A DNA stretch of 64,000 nucleotides, from assembly GCA_001724265.1 (NCBI GenBank), contig MEDY01000086.1, positions 1 to 64,000 on the forward strand, in the 5' to 3' direction. Source of the DNA: Rhizaria sp. SCN 62-66 (Eukaryota). The position numbers were made by a program, and so were the translations under genes. Positions within the stretch are counted from its first letter, which is position 1, and each line of letters starts with the position of its first letter. The notes under the pieces were generated by a model that worked only from the letters and a program-made list of their open reading frames with translations, was not told the DNA's origin and did no database searches. This document shows, piece by piece, positions 918 through 64,000 of the stretch.

Positions 918-2101
918 CACCGTTGCACACAAAATAATAGGGCAAGCACAGCTGACAAAATACAGCCTGGAGATACAGGGAATAAGTGTCAACGAAAAGA
1001 CTCAAGTGACAAGAGCACTTCTGCTGGAGTCGCAATCGATGATACGAGTCGAATCGAGAGCAACAGCAACAGCAAAGGAAGGCAAAACATGCGCAGAGAA
1101 GACCAACGCGCACAGCCCAGGTCAAAAACACAACTCACGGAACAGAAACAAGGAAGAAAAAAAAACGCTTTGAGAATAAAGTACAACAAAGCAGTGAACG
1201 ATGAAACGAAACAGAGACAACGAATAGACTGAAGTGATCATAATGGTGCGATGAACAACAGCACCGAACGAAAGCAACAACAACACAGTACAGTGCTAAG
1301 TAGTAACATTATAGTTTGGATATAAAGATTACTTTCGGTCACAATCAAAGACCATTGAGAGTTTTCACACAAGTCAGCTCGAGCAAACCCGATCAAAGTC
1401 ACCAATGAACGATGACATAAATATGAGTCGATTTGTTATCAATCGACTCGATAAATACCTAAAATAATAAATATCGCACGCTCCGTTAATCTCGCTTTCT
1501 CTCGCCCTCGGCAATAAGACCTGAGCCTGAGAGTGTCGACTATTAATGTGTTGTGTTGTGTTGTGTCGATGCCACGATATCGAGCACTGATGTTGATTAT
1601 AGATACTAATATACTTCGTATATGGCCTTTGTAGAGTTCTTAGGACGGCCATAGTGTGATCATGCCGGTTATTGTGGTGAATAAGAGTGGGCTACTTTGT
1701 TGTGCTGTGTTGTGTTGTGCGAGCGATTCGCGATCCGGAGACAATTAGACTGAAGTATTGCAATTACAAAGGGCACTTACACCAGGTAAGTACAAGACAT
1801 AGAAACATAGCAGCAACGATAGGAATTGCTGTTATGCCTCCTAACAATGTCTTGTTTGGTCATCCTTCGTAACTGAGACACATGTGTCTACGACAAAAGC
1901 ACGAAACACTGCAAATTATACAAGATAGAGATAACTGCGTTAAAAAAAAACACGACTGCGAAAGAATAAAATAGGAACATCACAGCAACAAAACAAAACA
2001 CAAACTCCAGCACTCTATGTGCAACAAATCAAACAGCAATAACATGATAGCGACACTTGACGGCGACAGGCAAAGTAGGCAAGTACCCCTAAGGGGGTAC
2101 C

Positions 2102-3639
2102 TTAGTTGGTGACACGCTTAGTCTCCTACTCCGTTGCGGACCCCGCCGCGCTAGCCGCAGTATCAGCAGTGGCGCTGGCGCTAGCATTGCCGCCACCGTT
2201 GGGACTGCAGTTGTTGATGTTGCTGTCGTCGTCGGCCGAGGCGGCCAGTGGCTCAGCGGCGACGACGACGATGGGGGCGGCCAGTGCGGCCCACAGTCCC
2301 AGCGGCTTGCTGTGGTGGCTGTTGCCGGCGCTGCTCAGAACCGTGCTGCCGATCCCAACCCCGGCCACAGGCACGGCCGCAGTTGCTGCAGAGGCGGGGC
2401 CGGTGCCGAAGCTGCTGTTGGCGCTCACGCCGCCGGCCTCGAGGGCGGCAACGCCGCTGGCGCTGCCGCCAGCCGTCGTGGTCGAGGTGGTGAAGACGGC
2501 GGCGGCGAACTCCGCGCTGCGGCTGTGGCCGAGAGACGGCAACAGCGCAGCCGCCGCCGCAGTCGTGGTCGTCAAAGTGGCAGTGGTGGTGTGAGAGGAG
2601 GAGTCGAGGGAGAACTTGGTGGCCTCGAGTGAAAGCGCGCCGAGCCCCAAGTAAAACTGCTCGCTGGTGCTGCTATTCGACATCGCAACGTTGCCGTTGC
2701 TGTTGTTGACGCCGGTGTGGCCGTAGACCGAGGCGGCGGCGGCGGCCAGCCGCGGGGAGTCGGCCAACAGCTCCCGGCCGGCGCCAGCGACCGCGGCCGC
2801 GGCGGCGACTGCAGCCGCGGCGGCGGCGTCTGAGGCCGAGAGCACGGCTACCGCTGCGCTGTTGCTGCCATTACTACCATTCGTGGTGTTGATGTTGTTG
2901 CTGTTGCTATTGTTGTTGTTGTTGTTCACGTTAGGGTGGTGGCTGAGAGTGGATGAGGAGGACGAAGGGGACGGGGCAGGGAAGGAGGTGCCCAGCACGG
3001 TCGCGACCATCGTTGGCAGATCAATGTCATTTGCACCCGCGACAACAAGGTGTGCATTATTCACACCAGCGTTTGTGCTCGTGCCAGCACCAGCGCCAGC
3101 GCCAGTGAGAGAAAGAGGGACGGGTGTGTGTGCGCGGCCGAGTAACGGGGTGCCGGGCGCTAAGGGGGTACTTACCCCAGGTAACGGGGTACTTACTCCG
3201 GGCACGCCGCCCGCTCCGAACGAAGGGGTCCCCGGCACCCTTCCTGCCACCGCAGCGACAACAGCAGCAGCAGCAACAGCAGCAGCGGCGGCGGCGGCGG
3301 CAGCGGCAGCGGCGGCGGAGCTCGAGTGGGAGTGAGAGTTGGAGGTGATCGAGTCCCCGCCGACGCTGGTCGAGGCTGAGAGCGCCGGCGACGCGGAACC
3401 CGGGGCCAGGAGGCCGGCCGTCGTCACACTCAACCCGCCCATGCCAGCGCCAGCCACGCCAGTGCCAGCGCCAGCGCCAGTGCCAGTGCCAGAGCTGGAG
3501 CTAGAGATGGCAGAAGTGCCCGCGATGCCGCTGTTGGCATTCGCGGCAGCGGCGGCGGCGGCGGCAGCGGCTAGAGTAGGTGAGAGGAGGTTGCCGTCTG
3601 AAGTTAAGCCGCCGAGGGGCAGAACAAACGCGTCGTTAT

Positions 3640-3670
<31 letters not shown>

Positions 3671-6600
3671 CAATGACGGCGTCACTGAGGCGGCACCAGC
3701 ACTGGTGGAGATGGGTGCAATGCCGAAGAACACTGAGTTGCGGCCGACGCTGACGCCAACGGTGCCCGCAGTGCCCATATTGGCACCATGACTGCCACTA
3801 GTAGCGTTGCTGCTGTTGGCAAAGTTGCTGCTGGCAGAATTCGTGCTGCTGGGCAAAGGAGACGGGGAAGGCGCACGCAAGTTCGCGGCACGGGACGGCG
3901 TCGACAGCGGCAGCGGCGGCAGCGGCGACGCGTTTGCGGCGGCGCCGGCAGCAGCAGCGGCGGACACGGCAGCGCCGAGGGCATTAGTAGTGGCGGCGCC
4001 TGTCGCGCTACTATGGAAGGGGGCGGGGGATGAAGTACGGGACGACACCGCTGAAGACGGCAGCGACGCGCGCGCTGCCCCGACGAAACCCGCATTCGCT
4101 GTAGCCGCAGCCCCTGTCGCATTCGCACTGGCGCTGGCGCTGGCGCTAGCGTTGGCACCGGTGGCGGCCAGAGGGCTCGCCATCGTGCCAGCGCCTGCGC
4201 TGCTGCCGCTGCCAGCGACGGCGGCCCCGGGGACGTTCTGCGAGACAGAGCCCTTGCGGGGGGACGCCAGCGGCAAAGGGGGGACGCCTGGGGCCCCCGC
4301 TCCAGTACTCGCGAGTGCGCCAGTACTCGTGCCCCCGGCACTCGCAAGGGGGGCGCCAGCGCCGGAGCCCGAGACGCTGGCGGCGCTGCTCATGATGAGG
4401 TTGGCGCTGTTGTTGCTGTGCGAAGGCAGAGGGAGAGCGCCCGTGTGCGAGCGGGTGCGGGAGGGCTCGCGGTGGAACCCGGAGCCGAAACCGCCGAAAC
4501 CGGAGCCGAAGCCGGACCCAAAGCCGCCGCCGCTGAGAGTGGGGTTGTTCAGGCCGCCGCTGAGGCCACCGCTGTTGATGGTGTTGTTGTTGAAGCCGGT
4601 GCCATCGACGGTGACGGCAACGTCCGTGTCGGCCTCGCTGTTGTACTGCTGCTGCAAGAGCGCGGCGGCGGTGGCGGCCGGCGTGGCCACAGGCACCGTC
4701 ACCGGCACGGGCACGGTCACGGCCATTGGCACTGCGGGGCTGAAGCCTGCGCTCGACACGGGCCGGGGACGAGTTGCATTCGCATTCGCACTGGCGCTGG
4801 CGCTGGCGCTGGCGGTGGGGGTGGCGGTGGGGGAGGCTGAGCCGGCGGCCGCAGCCAGAGAGCCAGAGCCCATCGAACCCAAAGAGCCCCCCGCAGCCCC
4901 GGCGCCGACAGTAGGGGAACTAGAGCCAGCGCCAGCGCCAGCGCCGGAGATCGAGCCAACAGAGCCGGCAGTGGCCGTGTTGATGTTGATGTTGATGCTG
5001 CGGCGGTTGGGAGTGGGCGGCAGAGCGCTGCTGCTGCCGCCGGTACCGGTACTCGAGGTGGTCGCGGTCACCAGGGGAAGCTGCTGCTGTTGTTGCTGCT
5101 GCTGCTGGTCAGAAGATAAGCTGCCACCGGCTCCCGTGCGGAGAGGGGGGCGGGGCGGGGCGCCGGGCGTGGTACTTACATTCGAGGTACTTCCAGTCAC
5201 ACCGCCTGCGCCAGCAGAGGCGGACGGAACGAGTGCGGGCGAGAGGCCATGGACACTGCCCGAGGTACTTACATTGCCGCCAGGTGTACTTACACTGTAG
5301 GCGGGCATCAGCGACGCGACTCCGACACACACGGTCGAATTGGAGGCATTGGCATTGCCGCTACTGTTGCTGTTGCTGGCCGTCATGTTAGCATTGGTGG
5401 CGGCGGCGTTCGCAGACGAGGTCGAGAAAGAGAACAGCGGTGCATTAACTGCGTTGGTAGCATTTGTGCCAGAACCCGTGAGGGCGCCGGTAGCACTCGT
5501 GGCTGCGCCGCCGCCGCCGCCGTACTGGTGGTGGTGGGCGGGCACCGGGGTCGATGACAGCGCCAGCGGGGGCATGCCGCCGTAGCCACCGGGGCCTAAA
5601 GGAGCGAAACAAGGGAGAAATAAAGCAATATGACAAGAGTGAGGATAAAACATGGTCATAAAACAATATCGCACCAAAACGAAATTAAATGAATGTAAAA
5701 CTTAGTTTTTCATGTTAAAGTATAATTTGGAGCCGTAAAGAAATGATATATGCGGTCTGATCTCTTGTTTTGTGAATTGTACACGTACCTGGCGTGGAGG
5801 GCGAAACGACGTTTGAGTAGCTCGACAACGGGGTCATGGCCTGCGTTAACGCCGCCGTGACGTCCGCCGCCGCCGCCGCCGCCGCGGCGGCCGCCGCCGA
5901 GAGAGGGGCCGCGGGGGAGGCGCCGTAGCCGCTGTTGTTGTTAACCGCATTGTTGTTGTTGTACGCGCCCTGGCCGGCGTTGTTGTTGTTGCCGTAGACT
6001 GAGCCGGCGACAGAGCCCGCGGCGGAGAAGGCAGGGATGGGCGTGGGGTTATATGGCGTGCCGAACAGACTCGCGCCGGTCACATACGCACCGTTGTTGC
6101 CGCTGTTGCTGTTACTGTTCGCGGCATTGTTAGCATTGTTGTTGTTATTGTTGTACATCTGATACCCGGTGTTGTTACCACCATTGCCGTAGTACTGCTG
6201 GGGCTGCTGCTGTTGAGAGGAGGACGAGGGCGGGAAAGGGTTCAGTGCAGCCGAGGCCGGTCGCGGCGGCACCCCGCCGGTACCCCCACCAGTACCCATG
6301 AGTCCGCCGCCGACACCGCCGCCGACGCCGCCAACGCCAATGCCGCCGCCGCCGCCGAAGCTGCTGGCGGGACGGGCGATGCCGGTGGGGGCGAGCAGCG
6401 ACTGGCCGCCGCCAGAGGCAGCCGCCGCACCGGTTGTGTTGGCAGCGTTGGGGGACACGGGGCCATTGGGATTGTTGTTGTTGCCACCGTTGGGGTTGGG
6501 ATTGTAGGGGTACGAGGGGCGGATGTGGGGCGAGGGGTGGTGCTTGTACAGCCCAGGCCCCGTTCCGTGAGACTGCATGAAGCCACCGCCACCGCCGCCG

Positions 6601-9389
6601 CCGCCACCGCCGCCGCCGTTGTGGTTGTTGCTGTAGGCGTTGAAGGGGAGCTGATTGATGTTGCCGTTGCCGTTGCCGTCTTCGTCGTTACCGTGGCCGT
6701 TGTGGTGGTGGTTGGGGTTAGCGCCCCAGTACGAGTCAGCTTGGCTGTTGTCGTTGTTGTTGTTGGTGCCGCCAGTGTAGGTGTTGTTGTTGTTGTTGTT
6801 ATAATTGCCACCGCCGCCGCCGTAGCCGCTGTACTGGGACCCCTGCTGCTGTTGGGGATTGTGGACATGTCCGCCAGCAGCAGTGTTGTTGGGGTCGTAG
6901 TAAAAGCTCCCATGCTGCGACTGAGCCCCCAGTGAAGGAGCTCCCCAGCCGCCCCCGCCGCCCCCGCCGCCAACGCCAGCGCCAGCGCCGCCGGCGACGA
7001 CGGCGGTGCTGTCGACGCCCCCGTACTCGCTCCCGTAGTGTCTACCGTGGTAGCCGCCGGGGAAGGTGTTGTTGGGAGCAAAGCCGTTGCCGCCGCCGTC
7101 ATCGTCGTCATCATCAACATCGTTGTTAGTATTATTGTTGTTGTTGTTGTTGTTGTTGGCGTTGTAGGGGCCGCCGAAGCGAGACTGCTGCTGTTGTTGT
7201 TGGCCATTGTTGTAGCTGCTATACTGGTTCCCAGTGGTGATGTTCGCGGCAGTGGTAGAGCCAGCGCCAGAGCCGTGGTTGGAGGCGACAGAGGGCGTAC
7301 TCACACCCATCGAGCCGCTACTTACATTGTTCCCGGCAGCCGCATTGCTGCTGTTGTTGTTGCTGGGGTTGACGGCGATGCGCATCGGCGGCGACAGAAT
7401 GGTTGGGGCAGCGTTACTGGCATTGGCAGCGTTCGACTGAGACTGGTGCTGGTGCTGAGGCTGGTGTGGGTGTTGGTAGCCATAATGCTGTTGCTGCTGC
7501 TGGTGGTGGTACTGCTGCTGGCTGTTGCTGTTGTAGTTAGCCGGTGAGAAAGCGGGCGCCGAGAGGGCCGGAGACGCCCCCCTGCCAAGCCCGCCGCCAA
7601 GGCCGCCGCCAGAATGGCCGCCGCCGCCGCCTCCGCCGACGGCGACGACTGCGTTGCCGCCGCTGCCGCCGTGCTGCTGCTGGTTGTGGCCATGATTATG
7701 GCTGATGTTAGAGTGGTGGCCGTGGTGACCGCCGCCGCCGCCGCCGCCTGAGGCAGGAGTTAAGCCGCCGTAGCCGCCGCTGCCAGCGCCAGCACCAGAG
7801 CCAGCGAGGTTGTTGTTGCTGCTGCGGCCGCCGCCACCCCCGCCATCGTCGTCGTCATCGTTGTTGATCGGGCCGGCGTTGCCGCCACCAGCGGCGCTGT
7901 TGCTGGCGCTGCCGTTTGTGCTGCTGTTGCCGTCGTCCTCGTCGTCATCGCCCACCTCGTGGATGAACCGACACCGGTGTCCGTAGGGACAGAAGCCGTC
8001 CTTGAGGTAGTTCTTGCAGCGCTCCGTCTTGTACTTTTTGTGCCGGCTCACCGGCCGCAGGTCGATCTCACCGTGCGCGAAACGGCACTTGAGCCCATAC
8101 CGACAGAAGTTGGTCTCGGCGTAGCTGCGGCAGAGCTCAGTCTTGTACAGGCTCGAGTCTGCGCCCGCGCCCGCGGCGTTGGCGGCGGCAGCGGCAGCGG
8201 CGGCGGCAGCGGAGGCCGAAGCCGAGGACGAGAACGAGTCGCGGTGGCCGGAGATGGAAGTCAAGCCACCGGTGGAGGTTAGGCCGCCCGCCGAAGTCAA
8301 ACCGCCGCCGCCACCAGCAGAAGCGTTGGCGGCGTTCGCAGGGGTGAATGGGACAGCGGTCACGGTCACCGCTACCGCATTCGCCCCGTTGGCCCCGGAG
8401 CCAGAGCCAGAGCCTGTACCAGAGGTGTTGTTGTTGTTGTTGTTGGCAAGGGAATCGGAGGCTGCGAGGGAAGTGGCGCGGCCGCGGGCGGTAGCGGAGT
8501 GACCGTGAGAACCACCGGGACCCCCGTGTGTTCCGGCCGAGTCGTCATTGGCGTTGCTGTGGTGGCCGTAACCAGAGCCGCCAGCAGCGTTGCCGTCGTA
8601 GCTGCTGCTGTTGTTGCCGCCGTTGTTGTTGTTGTTGTTGTTGTTGTTATTATTGTTATAGTACTGCTGATGGTAGCCGCTGCTGTTGTTGTTGCTGTTG
8701 TTGTTGTTGTTGTTGCTGTTGGGGGAAGCTGGAGGCCGACCGCCGCCGCCGCTGGTGTTGCTGTTGCCGGCGGCCACGGCAGCCCAGCCACCCATCACAC
8801 CGCTGTTGCTGTTGTTGCGGGCTGAAGAAGTGGGGGGCAGCGGCGGCGTCGCAGCTTGGGGCAAGGACAGCGCAGCACTCACGCCGCCAGAGCCAGCGCC
8901 AGCGCCAGAGCCGGTGGCTGCAGAGGACGAGTACGACGGCCGAGGCGGGGCCAGCGAGCCGCTGAGGCGACGCGCCCCCGCGTTCGTACTATGGCCTCCA
9001 GCGCCGGTGCCAGAGGCGGCCGCGGCGGCAAATGAGAACGCGGTGTTGCCGCCGCCAGAGCTGGTGTTGGCGCTGTTAGAGTTGGGGTGAGGGATCAGTG
9101 GCACTGGCGCCCCAGAGCCCGCGCCCGAACCAGCGCCAGCGCCAGTGTTGGAGCCTGAGGCTGTGAGTCCGCTGCTGCTGCGAGAGTGGGTGGCCGGCGA
9201 GGGCGGCGTCGAGAGCGAGTGGCTGCCGCCGCCGCCGGCGGCGCCGGAGCCGGAGCCATAGTAGCCGGAGCCTCCGGGACCGGCGTTCGGTCGCTGTTGT
9301 TGGGAACGGGGGGCCGAGGCGGCGGCAACAACAGACGCCGCGGTGACGGCAGGCCTTCCAGCATTGCTGTTGTTGTGAGACGACGACAT
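2102..9389 (-). CDS. TIS11/ZFP36 (tristetraprolin/Cth2-family) tandem CCCH zinc-finger RNA-binding protein. Exons 9389-5789 and 5595-2102; 2,364 aa if the TAG at 2126-2128 is read through, 2,356 aa if it terminates there
   Basis: LYKTELCRSYAETNFCRYGLKCRFAHG...YKTERCKNYLKDGFCPYGHRCRFIH (about 8150-7959) is a canonical TTP tandem zinc finger: YKTEL lead-in, CX8CX5CX3H twice, 18-aa linker. ORFs 5715..9389 and 2126..5677 join in phase across an AT-rich GT-AG intron. The remainder is N/G/S/A/Q low-complexity sequence. Confidence 0.88.
5596..5788 (-). other. Spliceosomal intron (193 nt) of the CCCH gene
   Basis: CCAG|GTACGT...TTTAG|GC, AT-rich. The phase-1 junction restores a GGC codon. Confidence 0.85.
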
Positions 9390-10447
9390 TGCTGCGGACG
9401 GAAAAGGGTTAAACAGGCGTACGCCGCTGTTGGGTCGTGCGTAGTGCGGAAGTTTACGGGGTGTTAAGTTCGCAACACTGAGAGGTGGAGTGAAGCTGAA
9501 GGCTTAAGGAGAAAGGGAGTGGGTGTGTGAGTGTTAACTCTGTGTTCAGCCCGCGCAGCTGAGGGGTTGGGGGGAGAGTGCGCGCGGAGGAAGCCGGGGT
9601 GGAGAGGCGCGCGAAGGAAGCGGGCTGATGGGGAGAGCGCAATGCAAGTAAAAGGAGGGTCGGGGAGGGATGTGTGGTAAGGGTCGGGACACAGGAAGTC
9701 GGGGGGGATGTTCCGGGCGTTGGAGGCGAAGATAAAGAGCGGAAGTAGCAGCAACATGATAGATGAGTTAAATATGTGAATGGTACAGGTTCATGAAGTG
9801 GTGGACGAATTGACGAAGAGGACAAACTGTTACGGCCTGCTTTGTGGCGTGCTTTGAAGAGTGTCTGGAACGAGCTTTGAGTGCATGGAAAACGTTCGGA
9901 TTTGCCAATAGACCGTCGTTGAACCAGAGCAACAATCAAATATGCGTTGTGTCGCACACATTTCAAAACAAATTCAAAGTTGCATTCGTGCCCCAAGGAA
10001 CCTCACAGTCAGAAATCTCTGTTTCCCAAAGTCCAACTCAACTCGTGGTTCAGGTTCGTTTGGCTTGCGTCCGAGGCTGAGGCCGAGGCATCAAGTGACC
10101 GTGAGACAGCATCGCAAGCCCTCCTGAGCAACAAAGCACTCTCAATAGTGTGTCTCATGCAAGCAAACACTCGTGACATAATTGGAACTTGAAATAGATA
10201 TAAAACTGAGTTGACTGTGATTTAAACGTGGTTTTGTATTCGCACAGATTGATGCACCTGTGTCTATATCTCGTCATTAAACTGACTCAAAGAGGCCCAC
10301 CTGACCACTTGAACTTCTAAATAAACACCTCTACAAATAAAAGCAAGACATTAGCATGCAACTCGTCGCCAGAAATGTGTGGTTTCTGTTATTTCTACTG
10401 TTGCGCCTGTCTTGGTGCTCGAAATGACGATCTAGTGGTAACTAGGC

Positions 10448-11575
10448 TCACTTCTTCTTCGCACCATCCTCCTCTTCGTTATCATCGTCATCACTGCTGT
10501 CAGAGAGGTCAATGCCGAGCGAAAACATGCCGGCGATCTTCGCCTTCTTCTCCTTGTCGCCAATCACCACGCTCTGGCTACTCGCAGCCGCGGCCGCAGC
10601 CGCAGTCGCTGTCGCATTCTTCGGATCAGTCGAGTCGGAGCCGGTCGCAGCGGCGGCGGCGGCGGCAGCGGCGGCTGCCTTGAGGCCCTCGCTGATGTTG
10701 GCGGCCACAGTCTGCCTGTCCCCCGCCCCGACCCCCTCCAGGTCCCTGCCGCCCGTGTCCTGTCCGAACCGCTTCCCCAAGTCCCTGAGCTCTTCCCTGC
10801 GGGCCTGCTCCGTGGCGGCTACGGCGGCCGCGGCGGCGTCGGCCTCTGCGTCCAGGTCCCCCGGGTGTGAACGCGGACACGTCGTCCCCCGCGTCGCGCA
10901 CGCCGCGCCGTACTGGCACGGCTTCGACCGCGCCTTCGCGCCCCCGCCCCCGCCGACGATGGGGCGGCCGGCGGGGAGCCCCGAAGCGGTGTCTGCGTGG
11001 CTGTGCGCGCTGCCGTCGGGACGGATGCGGTTCCCTGGCGCTGCGCGGTTGATTGCCGCAAACCGGGCGGACACGTCGGTCTGGTCAGTGGCAGACTCGT
11101 CGGCAATCCATTTGAGCAGCGCGCGCTCCGCCTCGACGTGCCGGATGCGGCGGCCCGACAGGTCGCGGCAGGATGAGAAATTGGTCGTCTTCTTGGCGCC
11201 GACCTTGCCCGTCGCGGAGCGCAGTTTTGCGCCGAAACCGCCCTTGCCGCCGCGCAGGCGGGACAGAACTGTGATCGTGACGTCGTCAAAGTCGCTGAAG
11301 TCGGGCGAGGGGACGCTTAGAGCGCAAACTGGGGAAAGGGAAGAAGAAGAGCTAGAGGCGTCATTGCTCCCGTTCTGGATGTCGTGCTTTGAGAGGCAGG
11401 AGCGAAGCGGGGTGTCCGCAGCTGCGGTCAGCAGAGTGGTGGCAAGTAGCAGAGACTGCGAATGGGCCGGAATCCCGTCGAGGCGCGTAATGGCGGTCTG
11501 CAAGTCGGCAAACGTGGCGTCGGCAGAGAGGTCGAGCAGAGCGACTCCGCCGCGCAGGCGGCGCACGAAAATCAT
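10448..11575 (-). CDS. SDE2: Splicing regulator / replication stress factor SDE2 (ubiquitin-like N-terminus, GG|KGG cleavage site), intronless, 375 aa, TGA stop
   Basis: Ubiquitin-like N-terminus followed by the diagnostic RLRGGKGGFGAKLR...KKTTNFSSCRDLSGRRIRHVEAERALLKW motif. Confidence 0.9.
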   Translation of the reverse strand: MIFVRRLRGGVALLDLSADATFADLQTAITRLDGIPAHSQSLLLATTLLTAAADTPLRSCLSKHDIQNGSNDASSSSSSLSPVCALSVPSPDFSDFDDVTITVLSRLRGGKGGFGAKLRSATGKVGAKKTTNFSSCRDLSGRRIRHVEAERALLKWIADESATDQTDVSARFAAINRAAPGNRIRPDGSAHSHADTASGLPAGRPIVGGGGGAKARSKPCQYGAACATRGTTCPRSHPGDLDAEADAAAAAVAATEQARREELRDLGKRFGQDTGGRDLEGVGAGDRQTVAANISEGLKAAAAAAAAAAATGSDSTDPKNATATAAAAAAASSQSVVIGDKEKKAKIAGMFSLGIDLSDSSDDDDNEEEDGAKKK

Positions 11576-12009
11576 ACGGATATCCGTGATAGCAACGATC
11601 TAGCGTCGCAAAAGTGATGTAAAAGTGAAGCTAGGTTTGCTTTAAAACGTATAACAACTGTCTTGTTTCCGTTTGTCGATCGAAATCTGCAGGGTGCTTC
11701 TGGCAAGATAGCGCTCAATGAAGGGACTTTTGGGAGGCTCTTTCGGACCATTAGACTTTGTGTCACAGAAAAAGCGTATGTGGTGGGAATGAAATACGTC
11801 ACTGGGACTTGTAGCAACAGGTTTATAATGTATTTATATCAAGTGATAACAGCAACAGTGCATTGAAAATCCACGAACTCAGCGTTATTATCCCGCCAAA
11901 CCGGCATCTATGGCCCCAAATCTTCGCAAGTAAAGTGCATACGCCCCTTGACTGCGAAACCCAAGTCTTAAGCAGACGAGTACAGTAAGAATCCAGCTGA
12001 CATACGCTC

Positions 12010-13882
12010 TCACATGGGCAGCGGCTGCGGGTGGCGCACAAAAGTGCGGTCATACGTGGTCTGGACGGGCGCCAGCAGCACCTGGGGCTGCGGCCGCGTC
12101 GCCCTAAAAGGATTACTCCTCTGCTCGACCGTCACCGCAAACTGACTCTGCGTTGCGCTAGCGCTGGCAACAGGGTCAAACCCGTCGTTGTTGTAGTTAT
12201 TCGTCACCACAACACTGGTACGGTTCGCCGTCAGCGTCTGCGCCAGACTCTTGCTTTCCTTGCCGGGCCGCTGCTGGAACTCCGGGTCCTGGAAGCTGGC
12301 TTTATAGACCGATGCCGGCGTGGCCTCGCTGAAGGGCGCTGCCCCGCTGTTGATGGGCGCCACGCCCTCGATGCGCGAGTGGCCGTGAACGCTCTCGCCC
12401 GTGAAGGTCGACCCGAAGCGTGACGCCGCCAGCGCGGTCTTCTCCTCGCGGCTCAGAGGCACCTCGCGCTGAGACATGAGGCGTGTCTGGCCCGAGGGAA
12501 AGTGACCGTGCTGCCACCCACCGGTACCCACGGTACCCATGGAGCTGCCGTAGAGCGCGGGCGGGGCGCGCTGCTGGTTGCCAGCGTAGACCTTGCTGTC
12601 GTTCGTCCCAGTGCCCTTGCAGGGGGGATCAACCGGGATACGAGCGAAGCCGCTTTGGCTAGGGATGGTGCGCTCGTAGGGCGGCAGACCGCGCCGGGCC
12701 TCGGCGGCCGCAGTGAGCAGGGGCGCGGTGGCGATCTCGGCAAAATACGTCGTCGAGTACGCCGGCTTGTACGTGGAATCCTGAAGTGAACGGAGAGAAA
12801 GGCGAAAACAAGCGCGGAGAAAAAACAAGGTGAAAATACAAAAATGATGAAAACTCCGTGATGACATGATGAAGAGCGAAAATTGCGCAATGAGAATATG
12901 TGAAACAGATCATCTATCATAAATTTAACACGTATGAAGAATATATATGTGGTCACATCTCTGTTTTAGTGCTCACTCTGGAAGGGATGAGAGCGTACCT
13001 GGCGCGCCTCGTATTCGGCCTGCTCGGCCGTCAGCACGGGCGGGAACGACACAGCCTGCGCCGCATTGAGCGTGTATCCGGTCTCCGCGCCTCCGGCGGC
13101 GCGGTAATCGTCGATGGTGGGGACGTAGCCGCGCAGGGAGGAGCGGGACGGGTCGGGGTAGGAAAGCGCAGTGTTGGTGGCGTAGGCCCACGCCGGCGCC
13201 GGGGCGCGGGCGGGGTTGGCGACCTGGTCCGCAGTCAGGGGCAGGTCCTTGGAGGTGAGGTAGTCGCTGATAGGCTTAAAGACGTTGCGGCGCGGCGGCA
13301 TCGAGTAGCGCGCAGCGGCAGCGGCGTGGGCAGTGGCTTGCAGGGAGTCGGTCGAAGTGCCACGTGTCGCCTGCGTCGTCGTACAACACAAAGCAAGATA
13401 TTTCACAGTAAATATAGACACAGCTCAGTTAGTATGCTTGCTCATTGGTGACGATCAAAAGGAAGCGTGTTATGATGAAGTTTTAGTTTGATTTTCGTTG
13501 ATATAGCTGGGCAAAACGTATGTTTAGTGAAACGCCACATGACTGAGATATGGTTGTAGGTGAGCGCCAGTTCGGAACTCGTATGAGACTAAAGGAGACT
13601 GACACTGCAATGCAAGGCAGGGTAACGTACGTCATGCGGCAGGTTCTCCTTCACGGCGTCAAGCGCGGTGCTAAAGGGACGGTTATTGAGCGCGTAGCCG
13701 GATACAACCGCGCTCTGGCCAGCAGTGGCGAAAGGGCGGCCGCCGGAGCGCGCCTGCTGCTGTTGCTGCAAATGGGCCGCAGGGCCGCCGGGGCCGTGGC
13801 TCTCGGCGTAGGTGGTGCGGTAGTGGTCCATCATGTCCCCGCTGGCGGGCTTGGAGCCCACGCGAAGGGGCTGAGAGCTCAT
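12010..13882 (-). CDS. Probable ciliary microtubule-inner protein, PPP1R32/SAXO4-like. Exons 13882-13631, 13370-12999, 12780-12010; 464 aa; TGA stop
   Basis: Three GC-rich ORF pieces join in phase 0 via GT-AG introns. Repeated short motifs HYRTTYAESH, SGYALNNRP, ETGYTLN, YSTTYF, QSGFAR, SVYKASF and TTYDRTF resemble SAXO/Mn-type repeats. The gene model is well supported; the product call is from recalled resemblance only. Confidence 0.55.
12781..12998 (-). other. Spliceosomal intron (218 nt)
   Basis: CAG|GTACGC...TTCACTTCAG|GAT, AT-rich, phase 0. Confidence 0.8.
13371..13630 (-). other. Spliceosomal intron (260 nt)
   Basis: GAC|GTACGT...ACGCAG|GCG, AT-rich, phase 0. The acceptor position is less certain. 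Confidence 0.7.
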
Positions 13883-14541
13883 GGCAGGCTGGACGCTTGG
13901 TGAGCTCTGCAGGCGGACGGAGGCGGAGAGAAACGCAAGGTATGGTAAGCAAAGGTGAACTGTAAGAAAATGTAGAGTAAATTTTTAAATAAAACACACC
14001 GATAATTAATCGCTGTGTAGGCCACTAGCCATTTAACGGAAATTTCACCCCGCTATTACCACTGAAACATGTCTCTCATCGTAACGGCTGGATCGCAGTC
14101 GGGTCTCGTCTCTGTCTCGTTTGTCGGTCTCGTGTCCGGCCGACGATGACACTGCAGAGAGGGGCCTCTCGAGAAGTTCTTTCGGTCAGATCTCCACCGA
14201 GGCAGAACGACCGCCAGCACTCGTAAATGATGTTGAATCCCGTAGAACTGTGTCGTTATTACTACTATTTCTTGTGATTTAATTCCAGTCTGCGATATAT
14301 GCCTCGCCAGACAGCCCAACACGCAGCCCACGCTCACCGTCTCCCCACACTCACTCCCCACATGCTCCTGCAACGCTCCGCCCGCTTCAACCACGCCCGC
14401 AGCGTAAACCCTTACGCACCCTCCCTCAAAACAACCTGTTGCACCCCGCTGCACTTACCTCGCCGCACAACTTGGTCTCTACTCAGCCTGGCCCCCACCA
14501 GCGCTCGCAGTCTCACTCGTCTGCACGCCGCCGGTGACACG
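13883..14541. promoter_or_regulatory. Divergent (head-to-head) intergenic region, probably a bidirectional promoter with 5' UTRs
   Basis: The start codons at 13882 (-) and 14542 (+) point away from each other about 660 bp apart. A likely 5'-UTR intron acceptor (CTGCAG) lies 24 nt upstream of the 13882 ATG. Confidence 0.45.
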
Positions 14542-15360
14542 ATGCAATCCGCCGCCGCGCTAAGCTCGCCCGTGGACTCGACGACCGCGGCCGTGACGGC
14601 GGCGCTGGCCCCGCCGCCGGCCTCGCCCTCAGGCGCCTACGGCTCCGGCCTCAGCACCGGGGACGGTCACAACACGCCCGTCGTCGCTGTCCCCACCACC
14701 GCAAACGCCGCCAACTCCGCCAAGCCGACGCCTCCGACCGCGACGGCGCCGGTGACTGCGCCGACCAACACGTGGGTGTTCGGCTACGGCTCGCTGATTT
14801 GGAAGCCCGACTTCAAGTACACGGAGCGGCGTGTCGGCTACATCAAGGGCTTCAAGAGGCGCTTCTACCAAGGCTCTACTGATGTACGTCCCCCTCCACA
14901 AAACAAGATATATCTCGCCACAATTAGGCCTTATAGCAATGCCACTCTGCACCATGGTGCATTATAATATTTTTTATCTAGATCATATTTTTTTATTCTA
15001 CATCTCTCTCATCTTCTGCGATTTATACCCTCTTTATTGATCTTGACCTCGCAGCACCGCGGCACCCCCGAGTACCCCGGCCTCGTCGTCACGCTGCTGC
15101 CGAGCTACGCGCCCGACCCCTTCGACAGCGAGATGTCCGACCTTCTCGCGTCGCCGCAATGCCCCGAGGGGCTGTTGGAGACGTTCGCGGCCTTCACCGC
15201 TGCTGCGACGCCGCCCCCGCTGCGCGCCGCGGCTCGGGCCAAACTGATGCAGATCCTCAGTACAAACGCGCTGCCGCCGCGGAGTGTTGAGGCGCTGCTG
15301 TCCTGCATCAACACCATGAATAACAGCAACAGCACTGCTTCAGTAGGCAATGGCTACAAC

Positions 15361-15392
<32 letters not shown>

Positions 15393-16489
15393 CAACAGCA
15401 GCAGCTATAGTCGTGGTATTGGCAACGCGGGTCTCGTCAGTGCAGGACTCAACCGGAGCGCGAGCCTCAACGGCATCGCCACTGCTAGCAGCGCTGCCAA
15501 TAACCCGTTTCCTAACACTATCAGCTGCAACACCGCTGGTTTGGCGACGGCCACTGGCGGCAGCGGCGGCGGCGGCTGTGCCAGCGGTGCTGCGAATGGA
15601 GGTAACGGCCCCCCGTGCTTTTCCCCCGAGTCGGCAGCGGCGGTGACGACGGCGGCCGCTGTGCTGGGGGGCCATGGCAGCAACAGCAACGCGCTCTCAA
15701 ACAACAACGGCGTCAGCATAAGTGCGGAGACGGCGGAGACTCTGGCTGCGGTGGCGGCCGTCACTGCCGCCGTTCCTATGCGCGGCGAGTGCCCCTTAGC
15801 TTTCATGAGGGCCCCTTACACGGCCCCTTACACGGCCGGCAACGGCGGCGGGGGAACTTACCCTGGCGCGACAGCAAGTCTGGGGTCTCAGATGGGTCCT
15901 ATGCTGCCCGGTGTCAGCCCCATTCATACCAGCAACAACAACAACAACCACGGCCTGAACGTAGCCGGCGCCAGCTCCAGCGCTTACCCCACCAATGCCA
16001 GTGCTAATGTTGATCCAAGTGCGCGTGCGACTCAGTTCAATCGGTCCGCCAGTGACGGCATCGACGAAGACGACGAGGCGCTCTTTAAGTTAGGCCGCGC
16101 CGGAGGCGACCTCTTTGGCGCCGGCGCCGGCACTGGTGGCGCGGCTGCGGACAGCAATCTCAACGCTGGCGTTGGCAGCGGCGGCGTCGGCAACGGCGGC
16201 GGCGTAGGCGGGCTCAAAAGCGCTGAGCAGCTTCTCAGCAGTCTCGGCATTGACTTGGGTCACAATACGAGCTCGAGAGGAAGCGGCAACAACAACTCAT
16301 ATAGAAGCGCCAGTGTGTCCAGCCGTGACAACGACAACGGCAACAGTGGCGAGGGCGGCTTAACTTTTGACTCTGGCGGCTTAGCTTTTCAGCGGTGTGA
16401 CCAACAGCTTCAGTGTGGTTTAGTTAAGTCGCTGCTGCCACAGTCCTTGTCACCCTCACAGTCGCTGGCCGCCCAGCCACAGCTGCAGT

Positions 16490-16521
<32 letters not shown>

Positions 16522-23138: not shown

Positions 23139-23169
<31 letters not shown>

Positions 23170-43115: not shown

Positions 43116-43151
<36 letters not shown>

Positions 43152-55100: not shown

Positions 55101-58100
55101 GCAGCTCTTTACGGCTGGCTCTGTCAACAGCTCCAATAGTAACGCCAACTACACCTCGTATGCTCCGAATGTCAGCGCCAACAGCGGTAGCAGTATGCTC
55201 ACCGACCTGTGGTCACCGGCGCTCAAGCTGCTCCCACCCCACGTCGGCGCAGTGCCCGCGGCCGCCCCTCTGACTGCGACGACGCGCGCGGTGCTGCTGG
55301 GCGCAGACGTCTCCGCCACCACGGCCACCGACGCGCTCAGCGATATCTTCACAGACTCTGGCTCAATATACTCCAATGGCAGCGACAACACCGCTGTGAA
55401 CGACGGGCTTCGTGTCGCGCTGCTGTCGGACGACTGCGAGCCCTGCATGGACGTCAACGTCACGCTGCCCAACACAGACATCCTGCTCTCGTTCCGCGAG
55501 TCGCTCTACGGCAGGCCCAAGCGGCTTACCTTCGAGCAGTTCGCCGAAGCCTTCCCGGCGCCCGCGGCTGCCGTGTCGCTCTCCACCGCCACAGCTCTCC
55601 AAATCCATCACAACGCCTCGAGCGCAAGTTCGAGCTCTAGCTCTAGCGCGAGCGTTGGCTTCAGCCGCCTCTTCCGCGACCGCCGCAGCGCTGCCGACCG
55701 CGACCGCGCCGAGCGCGAGCGCGAGCGCAGTGACCGCGACCGCGTCTCCGCCTCGGTCGGCACCGCCGGCGCGCAGTCGGCGCTGGCCGCAGCGCAGGCA
55801 GCCGCGGACGCTGCCGTCGCCGCCGCGCGCGTGTGCGGCGCGCTGCGGCTGCCACAGACGCGGTGGAGCTCGCCCTTCAGGCTCTACTCGGCCGGGGAAG
55901 ACGCGGGCACTGCGGCGGGCGCCGCGGCGGGCGCGGCGGCGGCGGCGGTGTTGGCTGGAGGCGCGGACGCTGTGAACGGCAGTGGCAGCGCTGGACTGTA
56001 CGGTGTGATCACGCTCACCGAAGATTGCAGCGGTGAGGGTAACGATGTGAAGAGTGAGAACGCAGTGAGCTACTGCAGCAGAAACCTCGGCGACGACAAC
56101 GACGGGATCGACGACGATTGTGAGAGCTATATCTACAGCAACAGTTGCGGCGACGGCTCTGCCTCTTGCAAGAGCAAGAACAGGCCCGGTTTCCCAGTCT
56201 ACGACAACGATCTCCAGTCGTACAACCCCCACCGCTGGGCGCTTCTGCTCGCTGAGGCGAAGAAGACTGTGAGCGGCGAGCTCGAGCTTGTGCTCTCCGC
56301 TCGCCGCCGCGCCATCGGTGCCTTCCTCGGGCTCGGATCTAGCAGCGCAAGCTCTAGCTCTTGCACTAGCAACGACAACGGCACTGGAGCACACGTGCTC
56401 GGCGGCGCCGTCACGAGCACGGCCATCGACATCGCGACGTTCGAGCGCGCAATGACTGCCGTGCGCCGCGCCGCCACTAGCCCCCCGCTGCTGCAGCGGC
56501 CCGGCTTGCTCTCGCCGGCCGGCGTCGCGCTCTTTGCCCCACTGACCGACACGAACTCGTCGTCGACGTACGTGCAGCTGGGCCGCGCCCGCGCAGTGCT
56601 GCTGCGGCTCTGCGCCCTCGAGCCCGTCGCCGCCATCGACGCCGCGTTCGCGCGGCTGACCGGCGTCGCGCAGTCTGCCACGCTCAGCGCCAGCGCCGCG
56701 CCGGACGTGGTCGCGCTATGCTCGGTGTCGCAATGGATTGCCAAGAGGGCGCAGATTGCGATCATTGAGGCGAAACGCGGATATGCGGCGTATCTTAACA
56801 GCAAGAGTAACTCAAGTGACGTTCGTGAAACTACTAGCAGTGCTGGCTTGAGTGGTGATGCGAGCAAGGATGTTTCGTCTTCTGGCGCTAAGCAGCCTTT
56901 GTTTGGCGCTAAGCCGCCACCTCGCTCGTTCGAGTTCAGTGTCAGTGTCCTGGACCTCAACCCTCCAGTCCACTCTCTCACGAACACGGCGCGCTCGCAC
57001 GGCCACAGCAACAGCTCGCTGTCGACTCTGACTGCCGGCTCCTCGTCTAAGTACCCGCTTCAGGCGTCTAAGTACCCCACGCGTGTAGTCACCATCGCGC
57101 CGCGCTTCTTGCTGATCAACCGCACGCCGTACCTGTTGCAGCTCTCGCAGGTCGGGACGCGCCACCGCTTCGCGCTGCCGCCCCACACGCAGCGCACATG
57201 GCACCGCGCGGCGCCCGCGCTGCCGGCGCGGCTCACGGCGCGCGTGTGGCGCAAGGGCTGGCTGTGGACGGCTCCGGGCCACGGCTTCGCGGCCGACGTC
57301 GCGGGCGACAGCGCCGGCGTGATGGGCAGACTCGAGGGCGAAGAAAGCGCCGTTATGGCCGTGCGCGTGCGGGCCGTCGGCGCGCAGTGGGTGCTCACAG
57401 TCACTTCCGTCGCGCCCGTGGTCGTCACGTCGCTGCTGCCCGGCAACAGCAGCACTGGTAATGACGCAGCTGTCGTGCCTGATCAGGCGGCGCTTGCTGC
57501 CGCGGCCGCGGCTATTGCTGCTGGCGTTTCCAATACGGGCCCCGGCTCGAACACCAGCTCTAGCGCGGTCTCAACGACAACTACAACGACTGGCGGCGTC
57601 AGGCTGAACAACCTCACTGCACTGACTCTCTACTACCACCAGCACGGCTTTCCCGCCCGCTCGTTCCTTCTGCCGCCCTACTCCTCGGTGCTGACGGCCT
57701 GGCCCGAGCCCTGCGCCCCGCACCGCGCGATGGCGCTCACTGCGGCGCCCCCCGGCTGGGTGCCCCCGCCGCCCGCGGCGCTGCGGCAGCTCCGCCAGGG
57801 CGGCGGCCGGCGGGCCGAGGCGCTGGCGCTCTTCACCGCAGTCGTCGCCAACGTCGGCGCGCGGCTGGGGCCGGGGTTCACGCTGATCCGCGGCTACAAC
57901 AACCAGCCGCAGCAGTTGCCGCTGCTGATGGCGGCGCACCAGACGCAGACTGGCGTCGCGGGTGGCGCGGTTTCGAACAGCAATAAGACGGGTTCTGCCT
58001 CTGTGGGTGGCAACAGTGGTGCGAACGGCGAATTCCTGTACAAGGGCGCCAAGCAAGCCGCGAAGCGTGTCATCACGACTGCGACGACGACTTTAGAGTC

Positions 58101-61100: not shown

Positions 61101-64000
61101 CTACTTCGGCGTCTCGCAGTCGCTGTCGCGGTCTAAGGGACCCCTTACTTACTACCCGAAGCTGTGCGTGCGGGTCGACAAGCTCGAGATCGACTTAGAA
61201 GAGGACTTCCTTGTGGAGGTACTGACATTCGTCGGATCGATCACGCAGGCCCTTACACCGCTGACCACGACGACGACCTCGCTCCAGCATCAAATCGCCA
61301 CTGCGCCTCACCCGAGCACAGTCACCAACAACACCACCGCGGGAAATGCCAACGCCAACGGACAGCCGCAGGTGTTGCTCTCGCCGGCGCACTTCGCCTC
61401 TGCCGCGCCGCCGTTGGCGCTGCCGGCCCCGTCGCTGGGATGGCGGCTTAATTTGTCGTCGCCAGCCACTGTCGCTGCTCTAATCCCGGCCGCGGTACTC
61501 GCGCGCTACGCGCGGCAGCCGACGCTGCAAGTGCCAACCGCCACGCTCTACCGCAACAAGAGCAGTCTGAGCGCGAACAGCGGCTCGACGCAGACTGGGG
61601 CGGCGGCTGGCGCGGGGGGCACTGAGAGCAGCGTCGGCGTTGTGATGCCAGTGCACGGGCTCGGAACGCTACAGGGCGGCGGCAACTGGAGGCCTGCCTT
61701 CAGTGCACTGCTCCAGTCGCCGTCGCTGCCGTTTGCCTCCAGTAACAACAACGTGAATGCAAACAACATGAGCTCTAACACTGCTGCAATTGACTGCGCT
61801 TACGCCAGTCTAAGTACCTCGCTGAGTAACAACAGCAGCAACAGTCTTGACAGTCTCAACACGAACAACACGGACTCATCTCCGGCAGGAACTGCGACTT
61901 GCGCTGCAACTGACCGCAACTCTGCCGCTCTTGCTCACGGCTACGGCCATGGCGGCCTGAGTCTCGACCCTGAGGCCGAGGCCGCTGCCGAGGCCGAGGC
62001 TGACGAGCGCGACCTCATGCGCCGCATCATCATCGCGCTCGAACACACAGGCGTTCCGCCCGTCATTACTGCACACGGCGACGTCGTTGCAGGCCGCGTC
62101 TTCGGCCACGCGGATCTTGGTCAGGCCGCCTACCTGGCGGAAAGTCAAGCCACGTCTATGAATGCGAACACTTACGCCGCCTCTGTGTCCGCGAACGTTG
62201 CTGCGATGTTCAACCGAGGCGGTCTGGTCAAGCTAGCGGCGCCGTTCGCCACAGAGCCCCCGGCGGCTGCGGCGGGCTCTGCGAAGCGGGGAGCCGCGCT
62301 TGCCGCGGCTGCTACTGCGGAGGCCGAGGCTGAGGCCGAAGCCGAGGCTGCCGCCGCTGCTGCTGATGCTGCGAACGAGGCTGACTACGATGACGACAAC
62401 AATAATGATAGCGATGAGAGTGGTGCTTACTACAACGCGAGTAACGGCCATAGCAGCGCCGGCGACGGGAGCGATGGCGAGTATTACTACAACAGCCACG
62501 GCCGTCACACCGGCACGGCCACTGCGTTGGGCTCACTCACCATTGATTGTGGCGATGACGATCAGCACAACAGCGGTTTTAACTCTGCTAGTGACAACGA
62601 CAATAGTAACAGCGCCTACGTCAGTGACAGCGACGCCGGTATTGCACCGGATGCTCGCAAAGTTAAGCCGCCGCGTGGCGCTCGTCCGTCACTCCAACAG
62701 GGTGGCCGAGCCTCCCACAGTCGCAGCTCGAGCTTGAGCTCTGACGTTCACAGCAATCACCACGACGGCGACACTAGTTTCTCCGGGAACGGTGACCACA
62801 ACGACGTCTATCTTTCCCCGCAGCAACAATACCAACGTCAACTCTTCAGTAACAACGCTCGTAGCAGTCACACTCAGAACCAGACTCAAACCCATAGCCA
62901 GAGCACCAGTCAGTCTCAGGCGCCGACTCAGGGTCAGACCCAGACTGGGCCCACGTGGCACCTGCTGCCGCCGCACGTCGCCGGCGAGTTGGCCCTGCTC
63001 CGCGCGTACGTGCGCCTGTTATCGCACTCGCATGAGTTGCACCACCTGCAGGACGAGCTGGCCACCGCCGGGACCGGTGCGGACGCCTCGGTGTCGTACT
63101 TCGGTGACGTGTCGCTGCATGCGTTCAAGCTCGTCGTCTCCTATAGCACGGGCAATGCGAAGCTGCTGGAGTCGTTTCTCCCGCAGGCCTTCACGCCCGC
63201 CGCGGCGAACACCGCGCCCGCCAACACTCGCGCGAGCAGTAGCACGAGTGCGAGTGCAGTACAGGCGCAAGCGCAGTCGCAACATCAACAAACCGCAGCA
63301 ACAGCAGCAGCAGCAGCAGCAGCAGCTGATGATGACGGCGTTATGAACAGCAAGACCGCGTCTCTGTACAACTTCGAGGTCGCGCCGCGGTCCGCGCTGT
63401 CATTCCTGCGCACCACCACGAGCACCGCGCTGGCGCCCTACGCCGCCGCCGCGCTGCGCGCCGCCACCTCGGCGCTGCTCAACATTAACTCGGCCGCGCT
63501 CACGGTTGCGCCGTTGCGCGTGCGCCACAGCCTCGCCGCGTCGCAGGCATTTCAGGCCCAGGTCGCGCGCCACTACGGCATCGCGCTCGCGGCGAACTTA
63601 CATCGGATTCTCGGCGCTGCGGAAGTCTTCGGCAATCTGGGCGGACTCACTGACGCGCTCATCAACGCATTCATGGACTATTTCTCGGAACCCGTCATCG
63701 CGGTCTCGGACTCGGCACGCGCGGCGCCGACTACCCTCGCCGTCCCGCTCGCAGTCGCGCGCGGCTTGACTTCCGGTCTCGCCCACGGCCACCGCGCGCT
63801 GGTGCAGCACATCGTCTTCGGGGTCGCCAACACCATCGCGCGCACGACGACGTCCCTGGCCAAGGGCACTGCGGCGCTGACCGCCGCGCTGGGCGTGTAC
63901 TGTGAGCCCGACCCGGCCGAGCTCGAGGAGGCCGCGGCGCGCGGGCTCACGGTCGCGAACAACGCGGCCGGCGCTGCGGCGGCTCCTATGGGCGAGGCGG
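21652..64000 (+). CDS. VPS13: VPS13-family bridge-like lipid transfer protein, giant (>13,900 codons, 3'-partial). Exons 21652-21932, 22095-24762, 24961->64000, with two in-frame TAG codons (26566, 43858)
   Basis: Chorein-N domain (MLTQIFLYIYRQFLSPYIQIDEEKVSIALWSGSLSLENV...IVNNIQVEVTNVHVRLE), then AWWGWA and a FFAT-like EEEDQFFDP (30361-30399). After the second TAG, in the same frame: FNSELSSWEPFLEQW (~48860), YRIRNLTG (49288), PPLVLTNFLP (~52250), VPYWFVNRT (~54830), IAPRFLLINRT (~57095), IQLDNQL (60283) and VPS13_C HYG...HRILGAAEVFGNLGGL...DYFSEP (~63570-63700). The ORF track lists no frame-1 ORF after 43860, consistent with no stop up to the window end. Confidence 0.92.
21933..22094 (+). 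other. Spliceosomal intron (162 nt) of VPS13
   Basis: AG|GTACGG...TTCTAG|G, phase 2, joins the Chorein-N segments in frame. Confidence 0.85.
24763..24960 (+). other. Spliceosomal intron (198 nt) of VPS13
   Basis: CAG|GTCCGT...TGTTTAG|GTT, very AT-rich, phase 0. Confidence 0.88.
26566..26568 (+). other. In-frame TAG inside a poly-Gln tract of VPS13 (candidate recoded codon)
   Basis: CAG CAA CAG CAG CGG CAG TAG TCG CAC GCG CAA CAA CAG CAG CAA CAG CAG = QQQQRQ*SHAQQQQQQQ. The same frame is open on both sides. Confidence 0.7.
43858..43860 (+). other. In-frame TAG inside a Gln-rich tract of VPS13 (candidate recoded codon)
   Basis: EQQHQFS*YQQQMSQQLLHQ. The frame stays open for over 20 kb afterwards and encodes the conserved VPS13 C-terminal domains. 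Confidence 0.7.

Follow-up and report, generated by a model that had tools for sequence, protein, structure and literature searches.

Genes and word copies in the window

The first 64,000 nt of contig MEDY01000086.1 from Rhizaria sp. SCN 62-66 (hereafter the window) contain three genes that share a short nucleotide word, the 14-mer TAAGTACCCCCTTA, in which inverted arms flank the asymmetric core TACCCC. The GC content is 0.57-0.69 beyond the first 2 kb, and the DNA is that of an uncultured eukaryote with short AT-rich introns. The minus strand carries a CCCH zinc-finger gene, with open reading frames (ORFs) at 2126-5701 and 5715-9503. A ChaC gene occupies 14968-20445, with its domain interrupted by an intron and a low-complexity insert of ~800 residues. 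A VPS13-like frame extends on the plus strand from 22009 to the window end and is open except for one intron and two TAG codons. A first-pass annotation had described a 16-bp element recurring in the exons of these genes; every place that it named holds the word or half of it.

In the CCCH gene, a perfect 14-mer (3161-3174, minus strand) has a partner with one mismatch 21 nt away (3182-3195, minus strand), and the pair is read G-V-S-T-P-L-P / G-V-S-T-P-L-A. Three left halves, TGTAAGTAC, lie on the minus strand at 5172-5294 (TAAGT at 5174, 5267, and 5288), two of them 21 nt apart. The word also occurs outside coding sequence, as first annotated: a composite (2081-2105) located ~20-45 nt beyond the TAG stop of the minus-strand CCCH ORF consists of two overlapping, oppositely oriented copies. 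This composite can fold into a 9-bp hairpin, AAGGTACCCC/GGGGTACTT, with an RNA folding energy of -14.3 kcal/mol (matched by 4 of 200 shuffles). Further palindromes that use the same half-site are located in non-coding DNA at 1770-1795 and 205-220 (CACTTAC-ACCAG-GTAAGTAC and GTACTTAAGTAC, respectively). The ChaC insert carries a plus-strand cluster (16662-16840) that comprises two copies with one mismatch each, at 16662 (frame S-K-Y-P-L-R) and 16781 (V-S-T-P-L-D), and left halves at 16811 and 16832.

The remaining sites lie within the VPS13-like frame. Two antisense left halves, GTACTTAG, are found 15 nt apart at 25923-25946 (minus strand) and another, GTACTTAC, at 31310-31318 (minus strand); their GTACTTA stretches, at 25923, 25938, and 31310, are the reversed halves that had been noticed before. 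On the plus strand, a copy with one mismatch (27638-27651) is followed, up to 27740, by three right halves (CCCTTACA / CCCCTTGCA) read K-T-P-L-H. Two left-half pairs, 35054/35075 and 35796/35817 (35054-35825, plus strand), are each spaced by 21 nt, the second pair in another frame. Left halves at 40646 and 40667, again 21 nt apart, share a plus-strand cluster (40646-40761) with a perfect 14-mer at 40748-40761 that encodes S-L-S-T-P-L-H, and an antisense left-half pair with the same spacing lies at 42437-42466 (minus strand). A copy at 46385-46398 (plus strand) has one core mismatch and complete arms, AGTCTAAGTGCCCCCTTAGAC; the copy at 48608-48621 (plus strand) is perfect, with CTAAG...CTTAGAC arms, an RNA fold of -6.0 kcal/mol, and the reading A-L-S-T-P-L-D. 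At 57048-57078 (plus strand), two copies 21 nt apart, at 57048 (two mismatches) and 57069, use a second frame, S-K-Y-P-L-Q / S-K-Y-P-T, so that the previously noted alternative SKYP reading is present at 16662, 57048, and 57069. Finally, the palindrome at 61134-61147, TAAGGGACCCCTTA, is a variant that keeps the outer arms but has a different core.

Left halves, R-G-T-[C/G]-TAAGT-[A/G]-C-C, of which the window contains 39, and right halves, CCCCTTA[C/G]A, are far more numerous than full copies and often locally grouped. Among same-strand TAAGT pairs no more than 70 nt apart in the window, 8 of 19 are spaced by exactly 21 nt. Half-site spacings in the metagenomic loci described below are broader, 15-24 nt in steps of three, and we therefore do not regard 21 nt as a property of the word. 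The paired halves are not fresh tandem duplications because their intervening sequences are not alike.

Enrichment over synonymous codon choice

With up to two mismatches allowed, TAAGTACCCCCTTA occurs 10 times in the whole window, compared with 0.05 in 100 dinucleotide shuffles. For a null that respects the encoded proteins, we swapped codons among positions for the same amino acid in six ORFs, 200 times. The first-pass annotation had named this comparison beforehand as its check, and the excess is clear: 8 copies of the 14-mer with at most one mismatch were observed against a shuffle mean of 0.06 and a maximum of 2. Each half is enriched by itself, with 27 occurrences of TAAGTAC (shuffle mean 2.96, largest 8) and 17 of CCCCTTA (mean 3.01, largest 7). 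When every sense-strand 7-mer was compared with this null, without preselection, TGTAAGT ranked second (15 versus 0.61) and TAAGTAC third (22 versus 2.06); only one triplet-repeat word ranked higher.

Codon use reflects this excess. GTA supplies 6.3% of Val codons, and CTA and TTA supply 3.8% and 5.2% of Leu codons. Yet GTA AGT ACN encodes 10 of 20 V-S-T tripeptides, CTA AGT ACC encodes 8 of 24 L-S-T, and TTA is used in 10 of 22 T-P-L, in line with the original remark that the word forces rare codons. STPL is encoded AGT ACC CC[CG] TT[AG] in five of six cases, and the [VL]STPL frame accounts for six of the eight near-full copies in the window ORFs.

Metagenomic copies extend the word to 20 bases

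We scanned a metagenome collection once with the 16-mer STAAGTACCCCCTTAG. Of the 95 matching loci, 33 (32 contigs, 34 copies) came from a single metagenome, Ga0209958. None of the 95 overlaps the window or matches it at E ≤ 1e-10. The Ga0209958 loci have a GC content of 0.51-0.72, contain ORFs of the same low-complexity style as the window, and encode eukaryotic proteins, among them RagA, PRMT5, TBCC, Gpi16, Thg1, Dus, and a kinase. After masking of the seed copies, TAAGTAC still occurs at 0.32 per kb in these loci, compared with 0.06 per kb in GC-matched other loci and 0.45 per kb in the window.

Bases next to the 16-mer, which the search left free, are conserved in Ga0209958. T at position -1 is present in 28 of 34 copies there and in 9 of 49 distinct copies elsewhere (Fisher p = 6e-9), C at +2 in 27 of 34 versus 7 of 49 (p = 3e-9), and A at +1 in 22 of 34 versus 11 of 49 (p = 2e-4). 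These flanks therefore extend the word to GT[C/G]TAAGTACCCCCTTAGAC, 20 bases with 7-base inverted arms, GTCTAAG/CTTAGAC, and the 6-base asymmetric core TACCCC. The inverted arms proposed in the first-pass annotation are thus present but longer than the CTAAG/CTTAG that it gave. Across the 34 copies, the third arm position is C in 16 and G in 18, and conservation stops ~2-3 bases beyond the 16-mer. The copies are not perfect palindromes of the HIP1 type, because the core is asymmetric and the inverted repeat is confined to the arms. Related palindromes combine the same outer arms with other cores, and the spacing between their arms is 4, 6, or 8; CTAAGGGCGCCCTTAG in locus L025 and TAAGGGGCGCCCCTTA in L028 are examples.

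Copies in other metagenomes lack the flank pattern and resemble chance matches or bacterial DNA. In L009/L033 and L010/L020/L040/L074, the 16-mer lies inside repeats of their own, such as a tandem GTAAGTACCCCTTAAG-GTAAGTACCCCCTTAG in soil contigs, which are unrelated to the Ga0209958 family in flanks and composition. Within Ga0209958, blastn detected no similarity between any pair of different contigs among the 32 at E ≤ 1e-15, and neither a target-site duplication nor a longer surrounding repeat was found around the copies.

One string, four peptides

The reading frame was called from the longest ORF across each copy, keeping ORFs of at least 150 amino acids; 29 of the 34 Ga0209958 sites were retained (L045, the plus-strand copy of L048, and L051 were dropped for shorter ORFs, and L082 and L088 as ambiguous). 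Sense copies encode [VL]-S-T-P-L-[DA] at 19 sites and S-K-Y-P-L at 4, and antisense copies encode (S/A)-K-G-V-L at 5 and L-R-G-Y-L at 1. All four stop-free frames of the word are thus occupied, in both orientations, and a single 854-residue ORF (L055) contains one copy in each. The amino acid composition of the window proteins predicts an antisense share of 0.315, compared with 6 of 29 observed (P = 0.15).

Because the same nucleotides yield four peptides in four frames and two orientations, and exceed the synonymous-codon null, the constraint acts on the nucleic acid, DNA or RNA, and not on the peptide. This proposal of the first-pass annotation, which had also asked for the frame and strand distribution, is upheld.

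Substitution in conserved domains

Two of the 34 sites, in RagA and kinase fragments, fall in conserved domains where insertion can be tested; most sense copies lie in disordered sequence that cannot be aligned. In the RagA fragment (L077), an antisense copy encodes L-R-G-Y-L within a helix and aligns without a gap to human RagA residues 159-216, which have LEMNL there. In an alignment of 120 homologues, a biased sample drawn from a "longer" length class that is mostly stramenopile, the columns are contiguous and both Leu residues are present in 120 of 120. The middle columns hold E/Q/K (104/12/4), S/T/K/N (86/29/3/2), and H/Q (116/4), with R, G, and Y in none of the 120. In a second set of 120 proteins of similar length, LRGYL is found in the identical protein only. 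The nearest relative, a metagenome protein (P0122) with 58% identity that is near-identical around the segment and of equal length there, has LRAHL in the same columns. In the kinase fragment (L047), an antisense A-K-G-V-L-T-P aligns without a gap to M-T-G-T-L-S-T between APE and DVY.

The word is part of the translated sequence. ORFs of up to 1215 residues cross it in a single frame, even though 16 nt is not a multiple of three. The ungapped fit in two conserved domains, the LRAHL of the sister RagA, and the lack of common flanks in the 32 contigs argue for substitution and not insertion: the word appears to arise in place by base changes wherever the protein tolerates them, sometimes at the cost of unusual residues.

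The closest named RagA relatives of L077 are from oomycetes and diatoms, at 42-46% identity. The organism behind L077 may be a deep-branching stramenopile, a placement that rests on this one protein.

Folding of the word

The L055 copy, which has perfect arms, folds as RNA with -10.7 kcal/mol, matched by 0 of 200 shuffles; as DNA, perfect-arm copies fold moderately (-5.8 kcal/mol). G at the third arm position produces a G-G mismatch and weakens the RNA fold to -5.0 kcal/mol, and the perfect 14-mer at 40748 reaches just -1.6 kcal/mol. The flanks of the 34 Ga0209958 copies showed no compensating changes, an uninformative result because the arms hardly vary, and no Rfam family matched in the window. 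The parity of C and G at a position where G breaks the stem suits sequence recognition more than pairing. The centres of the two arms are separated by 11 bp, or one helical turn, which is the usual geometry of a dimer bound to one face of DNA.

Gene structure and read support

The sequencing runs that match the stretch are metagenomes from bioreactors, wastewater, and sludge. DNA contigs from two other runs are identical to the window over 16529-17529, which holds three word sites; these contigs and the fit of the word to protein alignments rule out an assembly artefact. In one high-depth contig, a joint 3193>3464 may reflect the double motif elsewhere, the shorter side of the joint measuring just 29 letters. 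Contigs from two RNA-labelled and two DNA runs were compared over 2000-21999; among the RNA pieces listed, none spans a word site, and intron 17536-17712 has almost no RNA cover. One RNA-run contig spans the AT-rich intron region 5384-5725, and the library may thus hold DNA or unspliced RNA.

The 5' splice sites of the window introns and the Ga0209958 loci are mostly AG|GTACGT, also GTACGC, GTCCGT, and GTGCGT, and not GTAAGT; in the window, their G lies at about 17531, about 24763, and about 5790 (minus strand). One intron has CTAAC at 17701-17705, 5 nt before its 3' end.

ChaC profile positions 57-89 correspond to the last part of exon 1, whereas exon 2 reaches positions 100-174 only after ~800 residues; a very large low-complexity insert thus sits inside a small enzyme domain. 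A search for relatives of this insert recovered only the protein itself. The ChaC gene ends with TGA and the CCCH ORF with TAG. In-frame TAG codons at 26566-26568 and 43858-43860 interrupt the otherwise open ~42-kb VPS13-like frame, both in a glutamine-rich context (CAG CGG CAG TAG TCG and TTC TCC TAG TAC CAG). Each may be a C-to-T error in CAG or a variant of it, a read-through site, a gene border, or a rare use of TAG for Gln. In the AT-rich flank, a nested inverted repeat (266-617) consists of 90-nt arms at 320-409/442-531, 91% complementary, inside a second pair at 266-296/587-617. It may be a foldback element or one resembling a miniature inverted-repeat transposable element (MITE), unrelated to the word.

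A proposed DNA recognition word and its rivals

The account that we favor, with a probability of about 0.45, is that the sequence would be a genome-wide DNA recognition word, created in place by substitution and maintained by selection or drive. We prefer it because the orientations are near the coding-tolerance expectation, copies are present in coding and non-coding DNA, and the arms are centred 11 bp from each other. The reader would most simply be a sequence-specific dimeric protein that contacts the CTAAG/CTTAG arms. If partial matches already conferred an advantage, sites would accumulate; the gradation of partial sites would be expected if mutation were balanced by selection or drive. 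The advantage could be selection for a chromosome-level role in recombination, repair, replication, cohesion, or modification, or else a bias in transmission, for instance through biased gene conversion. The same logic has been proposed for bacterial uptake sequences and cyanobacterial HIP1.

Several points weigh against this account. It is drawn from the anatomy of the sites, with no binding factor, modification, or chromosomal function seen. The asymmetric core is conserved as strongly as the arms, although a simple symmetric dimer would not require this, and the related palindromes, in which the core is different and the arm spacing varies (4, 6, or 8), fit a hairpin better than a rigid dimer. 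When the 8 sense copies of the window are added, antisense copies number 6 of 37 (P = 0.03 in a crude composition model); there may thus be a mild surplus of sense copies, which a signal at the mRNA level would also explain. The density, roughly one good copy per 7-16 kb genome-wide with several-fold more half-sites, is extrapolated from 64 kb and from ~75 kb of loci picked for holding the word, and Ga0209958 may not be independent of the source of the window.

The strongest competitor, which we nevertheless consider unlikely, is an mRNA hairpin with a 7-8 bp stem and a UACCCC loop, bound by an RNA-binding protein or the ribosome to affect pausing, localization, or stability. Sense copies, 31 of 37, exceed the composition expectation, the variants with other cores retain palindromic arms, and the L055 copy and the composite in the 3' untranslated region (2081-2105) fold well. 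However, at least 6 of the 29 sites are antisense, including those in RagA, the kinase, and the ORF with both orientations, and would have to be by-products or serve antisense transcripts. Half of the copies carry the stem-weakening G at arm position 3, the perfect copy at 40748 barely folds, and neither flank compensation nor an Rfam family in the window speaks for a conserved structure.

The word could also have no role for the cell and be the by-product of molecular drive or of a mutational process that favors it (biased gene conversion or templated repair, for instance), a possibility that we rate as more doubtful still. Substitutions that cost three unusual residues in a conserved helix would fit such a process, as would the spread of copies over both coding and non-coding DNA and the many partial sites (27 TAAGTAC versus 8 near-full copies) expected under mutation-drive balance. 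No template element in the form of a longer repeat surrounds the copies, however, and we know of no eukaryotic process that writes a fixed word of 16-20 bases without flanking homology. The by-product differs from the favored DNA recognition word solely in whether the reader serves the cell.

Much less probable are footprints or miniatures of a mobile element, MITE-like or similar to the Rickettsia palindromic elements, inserted in frame and feeding protein insertions. The palindromic arms, TA-rich ends, and local clusters recall such elements, and most sense copies lie in low-complexity inserts where insertion is still conceivable. The RagA and kinase sites are ungapped, though, with LRAHL in a sister RagA of equal length; the frame continues across 16 nt, which is not a multiple of three; and neither target duplications nor flank similarity were detected in the 32 contigs. 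These results contradict the first-pass suggestion of a tiny mobile unit that helps to generate the protein insertions.

Selection for the peptide motif [VL]-S-T-P-L-[DA], perhaps as a proline-directed phosphosite, with codons shared through recent duplication, would explain why this frame prevails (19 of 29 sites). It is scarcely credible given that the same bases encode SKYPL, KGVL, and LRGYL elsewhere, that rare codons are fixed in five of six STPL, and that non-coding copies and unrelated flanks occur. Equally remote is a splicing role, either as a 5' splice-site mimic, GTAAGTA, that binds U1 or as a 16-nt GT...AG mini-intron: about half of the copies start with GTAAGT and end with TAG, but 16 of 34 start with CTAAGT, the organism's own introns begin mostly with GTACGT, GTACGC, or GTCCGT, excision of 16 nt would shift the frame that ORFs of up to 1215 residues keep through the word, and the encoded residues match conserved Leu columns of RagA. 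The mini-intron, or any excised sequence, is rejected by the CT starts, the unbroken frame, and the match to invariant Leu.

Comparison with known genome words

The 14-mer TAAGTACCCCCTTA and its complement were not found across roughly 8.4 million papers and preprints, where only 10-letter substrings appeared, in 33 papers on unrelated topics. A keyword search of the literature for a eukaryotic precedent of such a genome word returned prokaryotic cases only, and we know of none described in a eukaryote. If a protein reads the word, it would signal an unrecognized chromosome-level system in a little-known protist lineage and offer a clean model of nucleotide-level pressure traded against protein sequence; if drive spreads it, it would represent a novel, insertion-free kind of selfish sequence. 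The word is also a sharp marker for binning contigs of this organism from metagenomes.

Other long asymmetric words of ~15-20 bp, the motifs of CTCF and PRDM9, are likewise found at thousands of places, including exons, and are each read by one protein. They are known from animals, and to our knowledge their sites do not prevail over codon choice and conserved residues as strongly as the present word does. No factor of this type was seen here. The bacterial repetitive extragenic palindromes and interspersed mosaic elements (REP/BIME) and the Rickettsia palindromic elements are also short palindromes in very many copies, the latter in frame within genes. REP/BIME are ~35 bp long and extragenic, and the Rickettsia elements measure 100-150 bp; both are inserted units that add length. 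In contrast, the two testable sites here add none.

The nearest analogues are prokaryotic: HIP1 (PMC4390886) and the uptake sequences of Pasteurellaceae and Neisseriaceae (PMC1939737). One study ties HIP1 to orphan methyltransferases (PMC4390886). Like HIP1 of cyanobacteria, GCGATCGC, the word is short and palindromic, lies far above expectation, is scattered through DNA that includes coding regions, acts at the nucleotide level, and has an unsettled function. HIP1, however, is a perfect 8-bp palindrome in bacteria and occurs at a much higher density, whereas the present eukaryotic word spans 20 bases and is only quasi-palindromic, its core being asymmetric.

The uptake signal sequences (USS) of Pasteurellaceae and the DNA uptake sequences (DUS) of Neisseriaceae are 9-12 bases long, and single copies are non-palindromic. 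They resemble the word in having a core with weaker flanks, both orientations, and many variants with one or two mismatches; they too lie inside genes where the protein allows and arise by substitution, not insertion. Their accumulation depends on natural competence and on a surface receptor with a preference for these sequences, and we know of no such competence or uptake route in eukaryotes. The window encodes no candidate reader, whether an uptake receptor with competence as for USS and DUS or a cognate methyltransferase as for HIP1. Where bacteria write words into their genes in spite of codon preference and protein conservation, the words report on systems of uptake, recombination, or methylation. 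By analogy, and tentatively, since as a whole we think it rather unlikely, the sequence described here might be a eukaryotic counterpart of such genome words (uptake, Chi, and HIP types), with a dedicated reader of a 20-base quasi-palindrome, spread by transmission bias or use as a mark of "self" DNA, and a pressure that overwrites conserved housekeeping codons genome-wide. With USS, DUS, and HIP1 it shares an excess over the coding null (8 versus 0.06), the presence of both orientations and all open frames, and an apparent origin by substitution.

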